Notes: generated from the sequence alone by a model not told the origin. Positions 4,953 to 56,294 are shown, counted from the first letter of the stretch. The stretch: 64,000 nt of DNA from Candidatus Babeliales bacterium (GCA_041671765.1 JBAZAX010000007.1:68-64067), one strand, 5' to 3'. Numbers and translations: made by a program.

Positions 4953-5235
4953 CGCCAGTTCGATAATTAGAAATCTACTTGTATTTTCGACTGGGACATT
5001 GCTTACGACGTGTACTTTTGTCATCCTGAACTTGATTCAGGATCTCTTTATTCAAGGCTTGAAGATCAAAAAAAGCTTGTATTTGTGAAATTTATTAATT
5101 TTATGGGTACTGAAATAAGGGATTTTATTTCATTTATATAGATCCTGAATCAAGTTCAGGATGACAAAAATACAATTCAAAGGCCTCTCTCCGTAAGTGT
5201 TTTAAAACTTTGTTGAATTATCGAGTTCGCGTTAA
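4949..5235. mobile_element. MITE-like non-autonomous element, copy 1 (287 bp)
   Basis: Terminal inverted repeats TTAACGCCAGTTCGATAATT (4949-4968) and AATTATCGAGTTCGCGTTAA (5216-5235). Internal approx 29-bp inverted repeat TTTTGTCATCCTGAACTTGATTCAGGATC (5016-5044 / 5141-5170). No ORF. Second copy at 23440. Confidence 0.75.
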
Positions 5236-5434
5236 TTAGATAGACAATTTTTAACCTTAAGTTTTCAGGCTGAAATCTTTTTAATCAATTCAATGCAAAA
5301 TCCTGGGTTTTATATCAAAAAACGCCTCCAACAAACCATAAGAAGTCGTCCTGACCCTTTTGCACATTGCTAAAATATTCGCTATTATTAATAATAGAAT
5401 TAAATAAAATTTATATTTTTATGGAGGTTATATC

Positions 5435-6490
5435 ATGAAAAAAAGTTTATTATTAACGCTTTTGACGTTAACTGCATTTCAGGTTTCAAGTAAAGTTTAC
5501 ACTATGAAACAAGACCAGGACGAAACTTCGAAAAAACGAGATCGTGAGGATCAGTCAAGAGAAGGGAAAGCCCCTGATGCAACACGAAGTAAACAAGATG
5601 CACCCAAAGGCGCCGAAGGCCAAGACCCTGAAGGTGCTGCACAGATAGCAGTGCCGGCAGCCGCCGCTGCAAGTGCCGAAGCCGCAGAAAATCGATGTGG
5701 AATTTGTTTTAATGATTTTGGGTCAAAAAATGAAGCTGGACAAGTTGTTACACAAATAAAACTTCCTTGTTGTAGTTATACAATTTGTGAAAAATGCTTA
5801 GAAGACGCCTTAAAAACTCGTCCCGTCTGTCCTCAATGCAGTGAACCAATTTCAAATCTAAAAATGCTTAAAGACAAAATAGTTGTTGCAATGATGCAGC
5901 GAAAAATTAAGGAAAAGAAAGACAGAATCAAAAAAGAACACGAAGAAGCAAGAGGACGTGAAAAAAGGGAACAAGAGACTGCTCGAATACAAGAGCAAAT
6001 CAGAAAATTTTCTTCCGGAGAGGATATTACGGCATATGTTGATGTTCCCGGAGATACTTTAGTAAATGTTTCATTCATATTAAAATTAAGAAACGCAGAT
6101 GACGAAGGACTCACAGTCTCTACTCAGCTACCTATACTACATTTTTTAGCCAAGGGTGGACCTGATGGACACGATGAATTTAAAGACGCTTTTGAACTTG
6201 TAAAATATTTTGTAGAAGAAAAGCATGCCAATATTAATCAAAAAGTAAGAGTTCCGGATCAAACCAAACGCTTTTATGGGAGAGGTGTTTTTGGAATAGA
6301 TGAATTTTTTAGAATAAATCCTTTCCAAGAAGATAATTTCGTAGAATTAACCCCATTGGAAATTGCTGAAGTATACGGAAATCACAGTATTGCTGCATAT
6401 CTGCGTGGTAAGATTGCAGAACAGCAAGCAGCTCAAGCTCGCGAAGCTGCCGAACGACACGCACCACCTGAGAAATGTGCTATACAATAA
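5435..6490 (+). CDS. leader-bearing RING-like zinc-finger protein with basic coiled-coil, possible degenerate ankyrin repeats and C-terminal CaaX box (CAIQ)
   Basis: Leader MKKSLLLTLLTLTAFQVSS. Eight-Cys cross-brace-like CGIC..PCC..CEKC..CPQC. K/E/R-rich helix. TPLEIAEVYGNHSIAAYL is ANK-like. Ends EKCAIQ*. GGAGG SD. Confidence 0.7.
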   Translation: MKKSLLLTLLTLTAFQVSSKVYTMKQDQDETSKKRDREDQSREGKAPDATRSKQDAPKGAEGQDPEGAAQIAVPAAAAASAEAAENRCGICFNDFGSKNEAGQVVTQIKLPCCSYTICEKCLEDALKTRPVCPQCSEPISNLKMLKDKIVVAMMQRKIKEKKDRIKKEHEEARGREKREQETARIQEQIRKFSSGEDITAYVDVPGDTLVNVSFILKLRNADDEGLTVSTQLPILHFLAKGGPDGHDEFKDAFELVKYFVEEKHANINQKVRVPDQTKRFYGRGVFGIDEFFRINPFQEDNFVELTPLEIAEVYGNHSIAAYLRGKIAEQQAAQAREAAERHAPPEKCAIQ

Positions 6491-23417: not shown

Positions 23418-23439
23418 ACTGGAATGTAGTAAATATTAT

Positions 23440-23786
23440 TTAATGCCAGTTCGATAACTAAAGACTGTTTATATTTTCTCATTGAATGTTGGTTGCAACG
23501 TGCGTTTTTGTCATCCTGAACTTGATTCAGGATCTCTTTTTTCAAGTATTGAAGATCAACAAAATGCTTGGATTGATGGAATTTATTAATTTTATGGGTA
23601 CTGAAATAAGCGACCTATTAACAAAAAATAACGGGGATTTTATTTTATTTATATAGATCCTGAATCAAGTTCCCAGCCGTCGCGTTTGAAACGCTATGGC
23701 GGACAGGCAGGATGACAAAAATACAATTCAAAGGCCCATCTCAGTAAGAGTTTTTAAGTCTCGCCGAATTATCGAGTTCACGTTAT
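23440..23786. mobile_element. MITE-like element, copy 2 (347 bp) carrying a nested 36-bp GC-rich insertion
   Basis: TIRs TTAATGCCAGTTCGATAACT and AATTATCGAGTTCACGTTAT. Colinear with copy 1, including the TGTCATCCTGAACTTGATTCAGGATC arms. An extra approx 24 bp and a 36-bp insert split the right arm. Confidence 0.75.
23673..23708. repeat. 36-bp GC-rich mini-insertion (GCCTGTCCGCC...GGCTGG family, reverse orientation)
   Basis: CCAGCCGTCGCGTTTGAAACGCTATGGCGGACAGGC interrupts GATCCTGAATCAAGTTC|AGGATGACA, which is intact in copy 1. Same length and termini as the insert at 26796-26831. Confidence 0.6.
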
Positions 23787-23795
23787 TTATGGCTA

Positions 23796-26728: not shown

Positions 26729-26781
26729 TATAAGAAGCCCTTATTTAATAGATGTCTTCCGAAACCAAACAACTCCAACCA

Positions 26782-26865
26782 GCCCGCTCGTGGTGCCTGT
26801 CCGCCGAAGCTACTATCAAGCGAAGGCTGGGAGCTTGTCGAACCATCGCCCAAAGGGCGGCGGGC
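26782..26865. repeat. GC-rich palindromic mini-element (copy E3) with nested 36-bp insert at 26796-26831
   Basis: GCCCGCTCGTGGTG[36-bp insert]AGCTTGTCGAACCATCGCCCAAAGGGCGGCGGGC. Without the insert it matches the 48-bp copy at 29204. Confidence 0.65.
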
Positions 26866-26949
26866 AAAGATTCAGAAGAGCTTTAATGTTTTTTTACTTC
26901 ATTCTTTCATAAGTATAAGCATACAAGATTTTGTAATCACATACAAAGT

Positions 26950-26990
26950 ACAAAATAAAAACCCCCGCTTACAATTAAGTAAATGGGGGT
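26950..26990 (-). terminator. rho-independent terminator
   Basis: Minus-strand stem ACCCCCATTTAC / GTAAGCGGGGGT, followed by TTTTTATTTT. Confidence 0.6.
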
Positions 26991-27011
26991 CAAATTTAAA
27001 AACTAGAGGAT

Positions 27012-27716
27012 TTACTGTAAAGAACAGCTCTCTCTTTTAATTTTTCCGGCTTTGTCTGAAACGTGTCTTAAAGCCTGTCTTCCATGTCTCAATGTAAAAT
27101 CAGTTACCAAAGGAGCCGCTGCACCAGCAACATAACTCACACCACCGGTAGCAGGAATAGCAACTATGGCACCAACAAGATACAACCCCTCAACAACGTG
27201 TCCGGCTGTTCTATATGGATGAGCTTGTACATAACTTAACCCATCACGACCAAGAGCAAAAACTGCTGCACCCTTTGTTCGCACCACTTTGAACAATTCG
27301 CCATCAAAATTAAAGTACTGGTTAACTTTTACGTCACCGTGTTCGTCAAGCTTCAATTCGACTGTCTTTTCTGGTTGTGCAACCTGTGTTTGAACGATTT
27401 CCATTGGAGCTGTTTGCTCTTTGGCAGCAACGATCTCATTTAGCAATCTAACAATAGATTCATCCTCTACTCTTGCTGCAGCTGCTAATCCACGCGTATC
27501 GCCAGAAAACCAATTATCGCCATCTCTTGTATAAACTTCGCCCTGAACAGCTTCGCTATCTTTAAATGTCAATAATCCGGTTGCTCTATCCCATGTAGAA
27601 TAACGAACAATCGACTGGCCATATACTGCTGCTTCTGCAGGGGCCGTTTTTTCCATAGAATAAAGACCTGAACCTACCAATAACGCTGATGTTAGAACAA
27701 TAAACATCTTTTTCAT
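27012..27716 (-). CDS. leader-bearing protein with C-terminal hydrophobic segment, polybasic tract and CaaX box (CSLQ)
   Basis: Start moved to ATG 27716 (MKKMFIVLTSALLVGSGLYS) after AGGAGG. Ends DKAGKIKRESCSLQ*. No family recognised. Visibly more GC-rich than its surroundings. Confidence 0.65.
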   Translation of the reverse strand: MKKMFIVLTSALLVGSGLYSMEKTAPAEAAVYGQSIVRYSTWDRATGLLTFKDSEAVQGEVYTRDGDNWFSGDTRGLAAAARVEDESIVRLLNEIVAAKEQTAPMEIVQTQVAQPEKTVELKLDEHGDVKVNQYFNFDGELFKVVRTKGAAVFALGRDGLSYVQAHPYRTAGHVVEGLYLVGAIVAIPATGGVSYVAGAAAPLVTDFTLRHGRQALRHVSDKAGKIKRESCSLQ

Positions 27717-27982
27717 GAAATAACCTCCTAAAATATAACCTACCACTTTTACTTACTTATAACCTACCATTTCCCTCTGTCAAAGCTTTTAACGTTTCTT
27801 TGATCAGGACGAAAAGCCATTTTCAGACTTTTCTATTTAAAAACTTATAACTTATTATATACCTGTAAATTTAAATTGTAAAACGCCATACAGATCGGCA
27901 AATCCATAAAACAACTTCTTGCCGATAGCCCCCGATATAGTCATCTCCGAAAGCTAACCAAAAACACATTAAAGCTCTTAAT

Positions 27983-28283
27983 TTAACGTGAGTTCGAGAA
28001 TTAAATATTACGAAAGCCACTATAACGTCGTCCCAACGTAAGCCGTGATCCAGTAATGGTTTAGCCTAGACACCGGCCTACGCCCAGGCTACGCGCAAGG
28101 CTTCGCCGGGCACGGCCGGTGCGACAAATAGAATAGCACTTGGCAATGTGGAACCTTCACATGTAGTGTAATTTTTCTTAAATTGACAGCATTGGACCTA
28201 CGCCGGGAAGACCGAGGTGTAATATCGTTTAGCGTTATTACACCGCATAACATGAATCATTATGATTATAGAACTCGCGCCTA
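27983..28283. mobile_element. possible third, divergent MITE-like element (approx 301 bp) with GC-rich cargo
   Basis: Left end TTAACGTGAGTTCGAGAATT resembles the other TIRs. The right end GATTATAGAACTCGCGCCTA matches its reverse complement at about 13/20. Similar length, but the interior is diverged and holds GC-rich hairpins. Confidence 0.4.
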
Positions 28284-28321
28284 CTTAATAACCCAGGCTC
28301 GATCTAATCACTGATTTGATC

Positions 28322-28981
28322 CTATTTTAACAAATGAGAGGCATCCTGGCCACCATCATGGGCAAAAAACTTTCGTTGAATATACCCCGAAAGGTAATCT
28401 TGTGGTTGAAATCCTGCAAGAAAAGGCATCAAAAGCTGTCCATCTTTATAAAATAAAAAAAGTGGCAAATCAACCTTTTTCAGCTTATAAAACATCGAAA
28501 TTTGCATAAAAATATCCATATTTTGTGCAACATTTAATCCCGCAAATATAACTTGATTTTTGAATTCATCTGCAACTGCCTGAAAAACCGGTGCTACTTT
28601 ACCTGAATCCTGACTCATGGGTGAATAAATTTTCAAAACAACCGGTTTTGAATACGAATTTTTGACAACCAATTTGGTAAATTGTGCCATTCCCTGAATA
28701 TTAAAGACAAGGCTTTCAGGCACACTATCTGTTACACTTTCAGCTGCAATCTGAGCAGTATTGTCGGACGAATTTTTGGTTATATCACCAGATTGATGTT
28801 CTTGTTGGGGTTCTTGATGTTCGATTTGCTCCCGCTGTTCATATGCCACCTGCGATTTTTCTTGCCCAGCCCCGCCAGATCGCACAATTTTTGTAAATAA
28901 TCCGCCCTGGTCAGGCTCAACATAACAAAGTAGATAAGAAAACGTTAAAAAAAATAGAAAGCTAAACCCTAAAACCTTCAT
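28322..28981 (-). CDS. secreted thioredoxin-fold protein lacking the CxxC active site
   Basis: Leader MKVLGFSFLFFLTFSYLLC. The C-terminal half is colinear with thioredoxin (PVVLKIYSPMSQDSGKVAPVFQAVADEFKNQVIFAGLNV..LPLFLFYKDGQ), with SPMSQDS in place of WCGPC. Confidence 0.6.
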   Translation of the reverse strand: MKVLGFSFLFFLTFSYLLCYVEPDQGGLFTKIVRSGGAGQEKSQVAYEQREQIEHQEPQQEHQSGDITKNSSDNTAQIAAESVTDSVPESLVFNIQGMAQFTKLVVKNSYSKPVVLKIYSPMSQDSGKVAPVFQAVADEFKNQVIFAGLNVAQNMDIFMQISMFYKLKKVDLPLFLFYKDGQLLMPFLAGFQPQDYLSGYIQRKFFAHDGGQDASHLLK

Positions 28982-29203
28982 GACTCCCCCCTACCGTAAC
29001 TGTATTATCAGGCCCAACATACCCCACAACACTAAGATCTCGCCCCTAACGAGGATCTTGTCCCTTATTTATGATAAAAAATTACAGCCTGAAATTACAA
29101 TAAATGGGTTTTTAAGTTTAAAGTAGGGGGAGTTATACCCTACTTCGCAATTTATTGTTTCGTTATTTATTAGACTTCTTGCATAACTTGGAAATCTAAA
29201 AAA

Positions 29204-29251
29204 GCGCGCTCGTGGTGAGCTTGTCGAACCATCGCCCGAAGGGCGACGGGC
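29204..29251. repeat. GC-rich palindromic mini-element (copy E5, 48-bp core form)
   Basis: GCGCGCTCGTGGTGAGCTTGTCGAACCATCGCCCGAAGGGCGACGGGC. Internal hairpin TCGCCC-GAA-GGGCGA. Flanked by the inverted CTTGCATAAC / GTTATGCAAG. Confidence 0.65.
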
Positions 29252-29277
29252 TTAGGTTATGCAAGAGATTTATTAAG

Positions 29278-31651: not shown

Positions 31652-32938
31652 ATGAATTTAAAAACTATTTTTTTATCAGCAATATTACTAATTTGCACAG
31701 TACAAGTGTTTACTCAAGTGGCTGATCCCATAATGCCTTTGGATGCGACTCAAGAATTAAAAGATTCTGACATAACTATGACCAGTCAAATTCCTGATTC
31801 AATGCCGTCTGCCAATCAAACTCCTATCATGCCGCCCGTTTCAAACACAATTCAGGAAATACAACAAAAAACGCAAGACCAAACGACTCTAACAATCAAA
31901 GTTACACCTACACATTCCCAAACTTTAACAACTCAACAACAAACAATTTCGCAACAAAATGTAACCAAAGAACCACTAGATAAACAAAAAAATTCTAAAG
32001 CTAAACAAGCAAAAATAATAAATCTTAAACCCAAAGAAGGTACCCTAAAAGACTCCGAACTTGATTTTGAAGTTGAAAATCAAACTGGTAAAACAATTTA
32101 TGTGGTATGTTTTTCTTATATCAATAAACGTCAATTCAGCCGTTGGCGTTGGGATAAATCCTCTATTTATAAAATAGAAGACAACAAAAGTGTAATAATA
32201 GATCTTGATACAATTCCCGATGAAGAGAATCGCAATAAGACATTTGGATATTTGGGAATATTTGATAATAAAAAAGAGGCTGACGATTCAACTATTGAAT
32301 TACTTGATGACAACAAAAAAATAGATTTGGATATAATTGCACAATTACACGGAAAAAAGATTACGATAGAAATCGAAAAATATGGAATAGCAGGGGAATT
32401 CTATGATTTTGATTTTCAAGATATAGATAAAAAAAAAGAAGATAAAAAACAACCCGAACTAGATTTTTATGTTGAAAATAAAACGGGTAAAACAATTTTA
32501 GTAACATGTTTTGTTTATGAAAAAAAAGCAAAAGGAAACTGGTTAGCAAAAAAAACAAAGGAGGCATGGACGGCTGATGAAGACACGCGTGATGACATGA
32601 CTGTCTGGCGATTTGATAAGACGCCCATAATAAAATTAAAACAAAATGAAACAGGACTTATCGATGTTGATACCATAATCGAACCTCGAGATAGAATTTA
32701 TGTTCGCGGCTATTTAGCTATATTCGATGAAGATGAACAAGAATTAGCAGAAAAATCAATTTATGAGCTCATGCAATCAAGACGTCGATTAGAAATAGGA
32801 AAATTGATAGAATTAAAACACAAAAAAATTTCAATCTATACTGAAAAGTATGGAGCAAGTGGCAACTTTATCGATTATGTAGTGAAACCAACCCAAAAAC
32901 CGGATATCAAAAAAGTTATAAATGGATATTTAAAATAA
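31652..32938 (+). CDS. secreted protein with T/Q-rich linker and an internally duplicated approx 130-150-aa domain
   Basis: Leader MNLKTIFLSAILLICTVQVFTQ. ELDFEVENQTGKTIYVVCF...KKITIEIEKYGIAGEF repeats as ELDFYVENKTGKTILVTCF...KKISIYTEKYGASGNF. Confidence 0.6.
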   Translation: MNLKTIFLSAILLICTVQVFTQVADPIMPLDATQELKDSDITMTSQIPDSMPSANQTPIMPPVSNTIQEIQQKTQDQTTLTIKVTPTHSQTLTTQQQTISQQNVTKEPLDKQKNSKAKQAKIINLKPKEGTLKDSELDFEVENQTGKTIYVVCFSYINKRQFSRWRWDKSSIYKIEDNKSVIIDLDTIPDEENRNKTFGYLGIFDNKKEADDSTIELLDDNKKIDLDIIAQLHGKKITIEIEKYGIAGEFYDFDFQDIDKKKEDKKQPELDFYVENKTGKTILVTCFVYEKKAKGNWLAKKTKEAWTADEDTRDDMTVWRFDKTPIIKLKQNETGLIDVDTIIEPRDRIYVRGYLAIFDEDEQELAEKSIYELMQSRRRLEIGKLIELKHKKISIYTEKYGASGNFIDYVVKPTQKPDIKKVINGYLK

Positions 32939-53543: not shown

Positions 53544-56294
53544 TTATAAAATCGAACACCACCATGATGATTCTTTTGTCAGGCCACTTATTATCATGGA
53601 GCTGATCAATGCATCTTTTCGAACGGAAGAAAGCTGTGGTCTATATGGGTTTAGAACGGCAACCGATTCATCTTGGCTACCTGCAACAAGGCTTTCAAGA
53701 TTATATCTAAAAAACCAGTATTGTTCTGGAGAAACAGCAACAACACCTCGCATTAACTCTATTAAAATACCTCTTTTAATACCCAACTTACACCCAAGAA
53801 TGCTGTATGCATTACATGCGATGCTAACCAACAAAGAACGTTGTGTGTTTGTACGATCTTCTGATACAAGATATTGTTTGGCATCTGCCAAAAATTGCCT
53901 ACTTATTGAAGCCAAATCGACACTCAAATCACTATGACAAATTATACTGATATAACGTCTTGAATAACTGAATATCAGCGCAGATAATACATCAATATTT
54001 TTTTGTCGCTTTATAAAATTTTGCAAAGCATGAAGGGCTGTAATTCCTGCAGGCAAGTAAGCCAAAGTTTTAGCCGCATTCTCCCTATTCTCTGCCTGAA
54101 GTACTTTATGTAAAAAAGCAACAGTATTTTCTGCGGCAATAAACATACATGCAGCTTTTAATGGATCTGAAGGAAGTAATGCCGGAACAAGCGCATAACA
54201 AGCCGATATTGCACAACGTGTATTAATGTCATCTTTGGGATAAGAAGCTTGATTATGCGGTATAGTTTGAAAATTTACATCAAACAAAGACTGCCCTATT
54301 TTTTGTAGAAAATAAATTACCTCTTCTCGTATATTTTGTCTCAATGACGAATCTTCAAGAGCTTCAATCAAATGATAAACAATTTGCATAGCCGAACCAC
54401 TTTGAGGAATTATTTCCTTATCATGGATATAAAAAATAAGAACTTGAATTGATGGATCTGCAATAGAAGAAGCCTCTCTGACAAAATTTTGTATAAGTGC
54501 CTTTTTAGGAGAAATCCCAACTGCCAGTAATAATCTGATTAAAAAAGCTTTCACAAATTTATTATCAAGATTCTGACTCAACGCTCTAATAACATCGTCA
54601 AATCCAACCAATTCTCTTTTATCAAAATGCTTACGACCTGGTATAAGCAGGAACAAAGGCTCTAACAAATCAATCGCATTTTTAATATCACCCCGAGCCT
54701 GACTCTGTAGCAAACAAACACCTCGATACCAAGAAAGAAGATGTTTATTCCCTAACTTTTCAATAAATGCAATCGCTTCATCATGCTTACCATCCCTATA
54801 ACAACGCGCTATGAATGCATTATTATCTACTTGCGATGGTTGTTCGTGAACTTCTTGTTTAGACACTTGGGGAGCGGGTTGTAATGACGATTCTGCTTCA
54901 GGCTTAACTTCTTCTTTTCTATGCTCAACCATTTTTACAGACTCCTGTCTGATAGGGGCTTGCTTTTCTGGAGCTTTTTCTTTTTTACGCTCAGGTTTTT
55001 TGGCATGCTTTTGCACAACCTGTTTATCTTGAGGTTGTTGCGCCGCAACAACTTTAGACACTAAAACCTCAGGCGTTGCAACTGGTTTGTCAGGCACCGA
55101 ACGCAAAACCACAGAACTTGATTCCAGCTCTTGGGGAGCAGGGGAAGTAGATTGCAACAACGGGTGCGTTTCAGTCTTAATTTTTTCTTTTTTCTTTTCA
55201 ACTGATTTTACAGGCTCCTGTTTCTTAACAGCCGGCTGTTTATCAGCCGGGCTCAAAGATTGCGTATCAACCGCCCTAGGCTGTTGTAGATCTTGTTGCG
55301 CTGGAGAATCTTGTCGCCCTAAAACTTCTGTATGAGCCAAAGCCTCAGATACTTCAACCGTCTTTTTAGGCTCTGAACTCAATCTTATAAAACTTGGTAT
55401 AAACGCAGGGGCATCAGGATTTAATTTGCTTTTGTTCTCAGTCAATAAAACGTGAGTTGAAGATGAAGTCGATGGAGCTGGTTGTGGTAGTGCCGGCTCC
55501 GGTAACAATTGCAATGGTAATATTGATGTATGCTCAGGTGCAAGTACAAAATCAAAATGATAATGTCGAACAAACACCTGTGCCACGGGACACCCATCCA
55601 CAGCAGCAGAAAAAATCTTTCCCAAAAGCAACTGTTTTGGCCACTGAATAGAACGCCACACATCTGAACGTTTTTTTTCGACTCGCTTCGAACCAATATG
55701 AGCCATATGTTGTAACCACTTGTGATCATTCTGAGCAAGATTGTGTAACTCTTCTAATATCCGATATTCAAGCGAAGATCGAGCAAGATGTACCGGATCA
55801 AGCTGTGCAAATATTTGTTGATTAACATCAGGTTCATGTTTGTAAGAATCTCGCTCTCGAACAAATTCTTGCAGTTGAGAAAGTTCATCAAAAGTCAGTA
55901 AGTTCATCTGGTGCCGCTCGTGCGCAGCCCAAAGAGCATCACACTCGCGATATTTTTTCACAATCTTAGATTTAATACTTTTTAAAAGCGAATCTTTGTC
56001 GACACGTGAAAGACATCGATCATTCTGTAAATATAATTCTTGCAATTCAAGACCATTAATATCTTCATGTATCCTTGAAAGAACATCCTTGATAAATTGC
56101 ATTTCAAAAAATTCAATTTTCATATAACGATCATAAGTCTCGCAGCACTGTGCAATATATTGATCTCTTGCAATCTGTTTCTGTTCAGACGAAGGGCCGG
56201 CGTAAGACTCCATTCCGAATAATTGAAAATTAACATTTAATAAACTTATTGCAAAAATAAAACCTTTAAACGATAGAAAGCATAACCTTTTCAT
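53544..56294 (-). CDS. large (916 aa) leader-bearing orphan protein with P/Q/K/E-rich disordered centre, helical C-terminal half and CaaX box (CSIL)
   Basis: Leader MKRLCFLSFKGFIFAISLL. Central low-complexity region (KKQEPVKSVEKKKEKIK.., KKPERKKEKAPEKQ..). Ends SSWWCSIL*. Confidence 0.65.
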   Translation of the reverse strand: MKRLCFLSFKGFIFAISLLNVNFQLFGMESYAGPSSEQKQIARDQYIAQCCETYDRYMKIEFFEMQFIKDVLSRIHEDINGLELQELYLQNDRCLSRVDKDSLLKSIKSKIVKKYRECDALWAAHERHQMNLLTFDELSQLQEFVRERDSYKHEPDVNQQIFAQLDPVHLARSSLEYRILEELHNLAQNDHKWLQHMAHIGSKRVEKKRSDVWRSIQWPKQLLLGKIFSAAVDGCPVAQVFVRHYHFDFVLAPEHTSILPLQLLPEPALPQPAPSTSSSTHVLLTENKSKLNPDAPAFIPSFIRLSSEPKKTVEVSEALAHTEVLGRQDSPAQQDLQQPRAVDTQSLSPADKQPAVKKQEPVKSVEKKKEKIKTETHPLLQSTSPAPQELESSSVVLRSVPDKPVATPEVLVSKVVAAQQPQDKQVVQKHAKKPERKKEKAPEKQAPIRQESVKMVEHRKEEVKPEAESSLQPAPQVSKQEVHEQPSQVDNNAFIARCYRDGKHDEAIAFIEKLGNKHLLSWYRGVCLLQSQARGDIKNAIDLLEPLFLLIPGRKHFDKRELVGFDDVIRALSQNLDNKFVKAFLIRLLLAVGISPKKALIQNFVREASSIADPSIQVLIFYIHDKEIIPQSGSAMQIVYHLIEALEDSSLRQNIREEVIYFLQKIGQSLFDVNFQTIPHNQASYPKDDINTRCAISACYALVPALLPSDPLKAACMFIAAENTVAFLHKVLQAENRENAAKTLAYLPAGITALHALQNFIKRQKNIDVLSALIFSYSRRYISIICHSDLSVDLASISRQFLADAKQYLVSEDRTNTQRSLLVSIACNAYSILGCKLGIKRGILIELMRGVVAVSPEQYWFFRYNLESLVAGSQDESVAVLNPYRPQLSSVRKDALISSMIISGLTKESSWWCSIL

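Follow-up and report, generated by a model that had tools for sequence, protein, structure and literature searches.

A CaaX-terminated, leader-bearing orphan protein of a Babeliales bacterium as a candidate host-lipidated effector

Why should a bacterial protein end in a tetrapeptide of the kind that eukaryotes use for lipid anchoring, placed directly behind a hydrophobic stretch and a K/R-rich tract? The locus that raises this question lies in a 64,000-nucleotide stretch of DNA from a Candidatus Babeliales bacterium (GCA_041671765.1 JBAZAX010000007.1:68-64067), which we refer to as the window, and it encodes a protein that terminates in CSLQ. The assembly amounts to 1.45 Mb in 50 contigs at 35.5% GC and is 93% complete; the best named relatives of its DnaA, encoded 2.4 kb from the CSLQ gene, belong to Candidatus Dependentiae/Babeliales at ~60% identity. 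Cultured Dependentiae are intracellular parasites of protists, in which ~44% of CDS have signal peptides, putative effectors among them, and in which outer-membrane vesicles appear early in infection (PMC6561590).

The gene, its signals and the layout of its product

The ORF at 27012-27716 on the minus strand is real, encoding 234 aa plus a stop with a tail that reads ...GLYLVGAIVAIPATGGVSYVAGAAAPLVTDFTLRHGRQALRHVSDKAGKIKRESCSLQ*, and the order of hydrophobic stretch, K/R tract and Cys at -4 described in the earlier note is indeed present at this position. The features of the gene are as follows.

27012-27716, minus strand: CDS of 234 aa, stop TAA at 27012-27014, member of an orphan family
27714-27728, minus strand: start ATG (27714-27716) and Shine-Dalgarno GGAGG (27724-27728) at a spacing of 7 nt, by direct reading
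27657-27716, minus strand: Sec-type leader, residues 1-20 MKKMFIVLTSALLVGSGLYS, followed by invariant M21-E22
27405-27623, minus strand: conserved N-terminal module, residues 32-104 (W42, TGLLT, W69, GD, AAAA, helix)
27189-27404, minus strand: variable middle, residues 105-176, largely replaced in distant orthologues
27105-27188, minus strand: two-lobed, weakly hydrophobic Gly/Ala/Pro-rich segment, residues 177-204, by hydropathy
27027-27104, minus strand: basic tail, residues 205-230 TDFTLRHGRQALRHVSDKAGKIKRES, 7 K/R and 3 D/E
27015-27026, minus strand: CaaX box C231-S-L-Q234, codons TGT TCT TTA CAG
27854-27882, minus strand: promoter-like TTTACA-17-TATAAT, 11/12 matches, within the conserved ~180-bp upstream block 27717-27896
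26950-26990, minus strand: terminator-like hairpin CCCCC..TTAC / GTAA..GGGGG, then a T run, just past the stop, by direct reading

The terminator-like hairpin, whose loop and bulge are too large for the limits of the automated scan and which was found by reading, mostly overlaps 26909-27002, a downstream block that relatives share in conserved form. ARAGORN reported nothing near the gene. The protein and its family gave no significant match in Pfam, NCBIfam or PDB profile searches, and a search of 5.8 billion proteins retrieved 8 relatives; when 1.84 billion representatives were searched with a profile, 5 proteins only came back, all of the same family and two of them new, which brings the number of relatives to 10. 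Of 201 genomes of the order, only those of the window's genus gave real family hits, and 3 of its 4 genomes did.

The leader contains no Cys and hence no lipobox, and it is near-invariant across the family, with a dN of 0 and a dS of 0.15 between the window and the relative L002. It is more conserved than the mature protein, and the M21-E22 pair that follows it is retained in 11/11 family members. Its synonymous sites are conserved too, since dS is 0.15 over the leader codons (27651-27716, minus strand), which number only 22, and 0.54 over the gene as a whole. Possible causes are constraint at the nucleotide level, gene conversion or an internal start.

Downstream of the leader, the N-terminal module is the one part for which a structural model is informative. 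The AF2 model of the full-length protein is unusable (pLDDT 35), whereas a model of residues 32-104 with five positional orthologues as input reaches a pLDDT of 83.8 and a pTM of 0.73, and it predicts a small sheet of four to five strands packed by a C-terminal helix. Foldseek found no credible match to this module in the PDB (best E 1.2, TM <=0.43), so that the fold gives no function.

The hydrophobic segment is weak. Its best 19-residue Kyte-Doolittle mean is 1.68 and its summed Hessa scale is ~+4 kcal/mol, compared with 2.49 and -3.2 for a true transmembrane helix of a LolE-like permease encoded in the window, these being crude, plain sums that lack position-dependent terms. It consists of two lobes, GLYLVGAIVAI and VSYVAGAAAPLV, with ~12 residues on each side of a PATGG turn; distant orthologues have charged residues at this turn (ELAGDQLSP, GVPLD) and a longer region, of 35-62 residues. 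On the basis of its sequence, we take the segment for a membrane determinant that is marginal and hairpin-like. The membrane effectors secreted by T3SS and T4SS sit just under the hydrophobicity needed for capture by the inner membrane (PMC6110835), and the CSLQ segment resembles those described by Krampen et al. 2018 (PMC6110835) in being weaker than bona fide bacterial transmembrane helices. By analogy, it would pass Sec by the same sub-threshold logic, but the T3SS/T4SS effectors bypass Sec, whereas the CSLQ protein carries a Sec leader. Chlamydial Inc proteins are delivered by a T3SS and have a bilobed hydrophobic domain of ~40-60 residues, and we know of no CaaX box among them. Like theirs, the CSLQ segment is two-lobed with a Pro/Gly turn, but with 28 residues and no T3SS marker in the genome the protein cannot be counted as Inc-like.

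The basic character of the tail is modest. Seven K/R face three D/E in residues 205-230, the 20 residues before the Cys have a net charge of +4, and the tract is interrupted (KAGKIKRES), with four K/R and two D/E in the last 10 residues before the box, for a net of +2. The tail is nevertheless the most basic among the box-bearing ORFs of the genome. K-Ras4B, with which the earlier note had compared it, combines an uninterrupted polylysine run with a farnesylated CaaX box and lacks a hydrophobic segment. The comparison holds insofar as a farnesyl-type box directly adjoins K/R residues in both proteins; it fails in that the CSLQ tract is slight and broken, follows a hydrophobic segment, and is replaced by an acidic tail in P0010, the most distant positional orthologue. 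The analogy is only loosely apt, because 9% of all ORFs in this Lys-rich proteome have a tail with a net charge of at least +4 and because basic residues are expected behind a hydrophobic segment, where the positive-inside rule predicts them.

A sorting signal for sortase or exosortase was also considered and ruled out: neither PF04203 nor PF09721 has a match in the 93%-complete genome, and the 30 residues of tail after the segment, closed by a conserved box, are laid out differently from such signals.

Conservation and genome-wide excess of the terminal box

The earlier note had proposed examining homologues for conservation of the K/R tract together with the box, and the two differ in this respect. 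CS[L/I]Q closes the protein in 10/10 relatives, including positional orthologues at ~25-38% identity, and its Cys is never lost. The tail has a net charge of +3 to +5 in only 9/11 family members, with nearly invariant K225, and falls to +2 in P0009 and -4 in P0010; since the latter still ends in CSIQ, the family can do without the basic tract. In the six distinct gene sequences examined, the codons of the box vary synonymously (TGT/TGC, TCT/TCA, ATA/ATT/TTA, CAG/CAA), and the two residues that precede the Cys vary freely (ES, EN, AA, PD, SI).

The box is not peculiar to this family. In a crude set of the longest ORFs of at least 100 aa across the genome (n=1133), 11 end in C-x-[ILVM]-[Q/M], where 0.21 would be expected from the internal frequency or from shuffled tails (Poisson p ~8e-16), and when the pattern is required to end 1-8 residues earlier, it is found 0-1 times. 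X is Q or M in every one of the 11 boxes, which fits boxes of the farnesyltransferase type (PMC11152559): Q at X lies outside the L/I/M set taken by geranylgeranyltransferase I, the strictly farnesylated boxes CASQ and CAHQ end in Q, and an aliphatic a2 combined with X = Q is in keeping with the canonical farnesyl-type pathway that includes aaX cleavage and methylation (PMC11152559). The CSLQ box itself combines a Cys at -4, an aliphatic a2 and an X acceptable to a prenyltransferase. Leaders are enriched among the box ORFs, where a simple classifier assigns one to 8/11 (10/11 by eye) as opposed to 33% of all ORFs (Fisher p 0.008).

Given the invariance of the box in orthologues, the synonymous variation of its codons, its excess over the genome and the restriction of X to Q or M, comparison of the genes shows the box to be under protein-level purifying selection and supports the view that CSLQ at the terminus acts like a CaaX box maintained by selection. 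A PDZ class I C-terminal motif was ruled out on inspection, since the terminal Q is not hydrophobic.

Two other leader-bearing CaaX ORFs lie in the window, at 5435-6490 (CAIQ) and 6537-7670 (CEIM). Both resemble the CSLQ protein in their MKK... leader, in the Met after the leader and in their farnesyl-type box, and the 6537-7670 protein also shares the hydrophobic segment. Outside the leader, however, neither is homologous to the CSLQ protein; in hhalign, the leader is all that aligns between the latter and the 6537-7670 protein (probability 4.7%). A further ORF of 916 aa at 53544-56294 (minus strand) has the same type of leader (MKRLCFLSF...LFGMES); its terminal box, CSIL, is of the geranylgeranyl type, in contrast to the Q/M boxes of the count.

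Possible readers of the box

Which enzyme could act on such a box? Searches of the genome for the protein prenyltransferase subunits (Prenyltrans PF00432, PPTA PF01239) and for ICMT (PF04140) gave no match, and neither the T4SS marker VirB4 nor the T3SS marker FHIPEP was found, while three secretins are present; the genome being a 93%-complete MAG, these absences are not absolute. With no prenyltransferase, sortase or exosortase of its own, the bacterium leaves a host enzyme as the only evident reader of the box. It is for want of an own prenyltransferase that mimicry of a eukaryotic membrane-anchor signal, as the earlier note had put forward, is the best-supported reading, and one that we consider likely on what is sequence evidence throughout. 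Secretins in the company of neither VirB4 nor FHIPEP fit the Sec-type leader, but they do not account for the step from periplasm to host cytosol, for which we know of no route in Dependentiae.

The scenario that we find probable is that the CSLQ protein is a lineage-specific, Sec-exported effector that is farnesylated by the host, with the hydrophobic segment and the basic tail as extra membrane determinants. Its export, delivery to the host, lipidation and target membrane are all points that we infer. To judge from its sequence, the N-terminal leader would take the protein through Sec, and the two-lobed segment, from its hydropathy and from the principle noted for T3SS/T4SS effectors (PMC6110835), would be too weakly hydrophobic to be arrested in the bacterial inner membrane. 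A secretin-type pathway or outer-membrane vesicles might then carry the protein out of the cell. Once its C-terminus met the host cytosol, host farnesyltransferase would modify Cys231 of the CSLQ box, and the farnesyl group, the K/R-rich tail and the hydrophobic hairpin would together hold the protein on a host or vacuole membrane, where it would present the small N-terminal module that we assume to be its business end.

Lipid anchoring by the host, which is probably what the CSLQ protein undergoes, has precedents in some Legionella effectors. AnkB of Legionella pneumophila is a CaaX effector farnesylated by the host, in which a basic stretch near the box adds membrane specificity (PMC3417404). 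AnkB is a closer precedent for the CSLQ basic tail than K-Ras4B. Together with the other CaaX ('Pel'/CMP) Dot/Icm effectors, it resembles the CSLQ protein in being bacterial with a eukaryote-type CaaX end, and the ~11 CaaX effectors per Legionella genome are of the same order as the 11 box ORFs here. The Legionella proteins, however, are T4SS substrates without a Sec leader, whereas the CSLQ protein has a Sec-type leader in a genome in which neither VirB4 nor FHIPEP was found; they share no sequence or domain relation with it, it has a two-lobed hydrophobic segment in addition, and it is known here from its sequence. Salmonella SifA, likewise an effector that host enzymes prenylate at a C-terminal CaaX box (PMC3417404), is less similar, being delivered by a T3SS, modified by geranylgeranyltransferase I, differently folded, and devoid of a leader and of a hydrophobic segment.

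It is possible, but unlikely in our view, that the CSLQ protein is instead a resident type I protein of the bacterial envelope, with the leader cleaved, the module periplasmic, the segment spanning the membrane, the tail cytoplasmic and the box put to bacterial use. Type I inner-membrane proteins are likewise recognized by a leader, a C-terminal hydrophobic segment and basic residues behind it, an arrangement that conforms to the positive-inside rule, and in this topology the tail would face the bacterial cytoplasm, beyond the reach of host enzymes. The failure to find T3SS and T4SS markers in the genome sits well with residence in the envelope. The box would then be recognized by an Rce1-like protease or by some bacterial C-terminal modification, and the genome does encode a single Rce1-like/CPBP intramembrane protease (G000, C9:39823-40104; PF02517, 49 bits). 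However, such proteases occur in 11/14 control bacterial genomes, so that the presence of one says little, and the alternative bacterial readers (prenyltransferase, sortase or exosortase) were not found in the genome. The segment also lies far below a real transmembrane helix on the Hessa scale. Moreover, the box recurs on 10 other unrelated ORFs, and besides the 6537-7670 protein 0/9 of those scored have a comparably hydrophobic segment, which argues that the box is independent of a membrane span. Nor would envelope residence explain why X is limited to Q or M, exactly as with a eukaryotic farnesyltransferase.

A variant that keeps the lipid, and that we regard as decidedly improbable, is a lipidated tether: the hairpin would be lodged in the envelope of the bacterium, in vesicles or in the membrane of the vacuole, and the farnesylated basic tail in the membrane of a host organelle. 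By analogy, such a protein would join bacterium and organelle in a contact like that of Chromulinavorax, around which a mitochondrion wraps (PMC6561590).

We think it very doubtful that the terminal Cys is kept for a non-lipid role, as the partner in an intermolecular disulfide or as a metal ligand once exported, or within a C-terminal degron or docking peptide, with the likeness to a CaaX box being coincidental. C231 is the sole Cys of the window protein (0.4% of residues), and next door, at 28322-28981, a syntenic gene encodes a thioredoxin-like exported protein, both of which would suit a redox or other Cys-based role. Yet such a role leaves unexplained the invariant S, [L/I] and Q that follow the Cys and its constant -4 position, as well as the 11 ORFs that stop right after C-x-aliphatic-[Q/M] when shifted registers yield next to none.

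Origin of the locus and implications of the box

The earlier note had singled out the codon composition of the CSLQ gene as GC-rich, and overall this stands: the gene has 42.4% GC, where the ORFs of the genome average 35.7% (z = 2.0, 97th percentile). This surplus is nevertheless confined to codon positions 1 and 2 (57.0% and 42.6%), while GC3 is typical of the genome (27.7%, mean 28.5%). It stems from amino-acid content, the protein being rich in Ala, Gly, Val and Arg, with Ala (12.4%), Val (11.1%) and Gly (9.0%) each at about double the proteome value. The same pattern of composition is found in most other CaaX ORFs of the genome.

The gene lies between a thioredoxin-like gene and an M3 peptidase gene near dnaA in the window and in four relatives (L002, L003, L009, L010), and its dS to L002 (0.54) falls among those of its neighbours (0.44-1.0). 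The rapid evolution that the earlier note had offered as one of two explanations is borne out: protein identity to L002 is 66% where neighbours have ~90%, and dN/dS is 0.37 as opposed to 0.05-0.11 for DnaA, RsmH, a TPR protein, the M3 peptidase and a 428-aa protein (31652-32938). The fastest part is the middle (residues 104-170), with a dN/dS of 0.59, compared with 0.23 for segment plus tail and 0 for the leader; against L003, BLAST aligns the CSLQ gene over the leader alone.

Two neighbours deserve mention in their own right. The upstream gene at 28322-28981 (minus strand) encodes a leader-bearing thioredoxin-like protein (Pfam E 1.5e-5) and is syntenic with the CSLQ gene in L002, L003 and L009, the relatives with a readable upstream flank; its product is fast for the region, at 74% identity and a dN/dS of 0.26. 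The gene at 31652-32938 (plus strand), beside dnaA, encodes the leader-bearing 428-aa protein, contains an internal duplication (32047-32128 versus 32446-32527, 77%), and is syntenic in L002 and L003, diverging fast in the latter (64%).

Repeats flank the gene on both sides, as the earlier note had indicated, and they are as follows.

26749-26885, no strand: GC-rich dispersed repeat in the downstream spacer, with copies on 7 other contigs and at 29217-29272
27976-28283, no strand: three GC-rich dispersed modules (27976-28053, 28075-28125, 28197-28279) in the upstream spacer, distal to the promoter

Taken together, the flank repeats of the two sides have copies on contigs C1, C2, C4, C5, C15, C19, C21, C22, C32, C33 and C49, and the orthologous spacers in L002 and L003 contain neither set. 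The spacers (upstream/downstream) measure 605/283 bp in the window, 293/172 bp in L002 and 258/148 bp in L003, and they are conserved only over the 180 bp next to the promoter (27717-27896) and the 94 bp next to the terminator (26909-27002). Since the repeats thus lie in extra DNA outside the conserved blocks, they are lineage-specific insertions into the spacers rather than the borders of a mobile cassette. Shared repeats are carried by ~17% of the genome's intergenic spacers. When folded as DNA, the flank repeats form modest hairpins only (z -1.5 to -2.3), and an Rfam scan of 20-35 kb matched the flanking GC-rich repeats to no RNA family, with one tRNA elsewhere.

Repeats are found in other parts of the window as well. 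Four neighbouring spacers near dnaA, those on either side of the CSLQ gene among them, hold dispersed GC-rich repeats (23418-23795, 26729-27011, 27747-28321, 28982-29277), and the copy at 29217-29258 matches 26831-26872 at 88%. An intergenic block of ~260 bp is duplicated 18.5 kb apart (4979-5238 and 23469-23789, 81-89% identity); within it is a 40-nt inverted repeat (5011-5050 / 5135-5174), and one of the two copies of the block immediately precedes the CAIQ gene. At 39476-39679, a run of repeats phased at 15 nt encodes Lys/Cys-rich units (..KCKDKKCKCVKCKDPKCKCTQCK..).

That the CSLQ gene is a recently acquired or repeat-mobilised cassette, the other explanation of the earlier note, is refuted despite its elevated GC and the dispersed repeats in both spacers, since its GC3 is native, its dS lies within the range of its neighbours, its locus is identical in five genomes, and the spacers of relatives are shorter and repeat-free, the window's repeats lying outside the conserved promoter and terminator. 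The comparisons instead indicate a gene that is old at its locus and vertically inherited, evolving fast under overall purifying selection.

What would it mean if this box were used? To our knowledge, host prenylation of bacterial effectors has been shown only for proteins of Legionella and Salmonella injected by a T3SS or T4SS, and no effector-delivery route is known to us in Dependentiae; our search of the literature found no paper that links Dependentiae with protein prenylation. What is new here, as far as sequence allows, is a CaaX-tailed candidate effector with a Sec leader in place of a T3SS/T4SS signal, and the CSLQ protein may add a case in which three membrane determinants (hairpin, basic tail and lipid box) are stacked. 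If the tether reading were true, it would be direct evidence that plain Sec-exported proteins, in a phylum without injection systems, reach the cytosolic enzymes of the host. More generally, use of the box would require that ordinarily exported proteins bring their C-termini into the host cytosol; effector delivery in Dependentiae would then become testable, and CaaX boxes would serve as a cheap genomic marker of the effector set.
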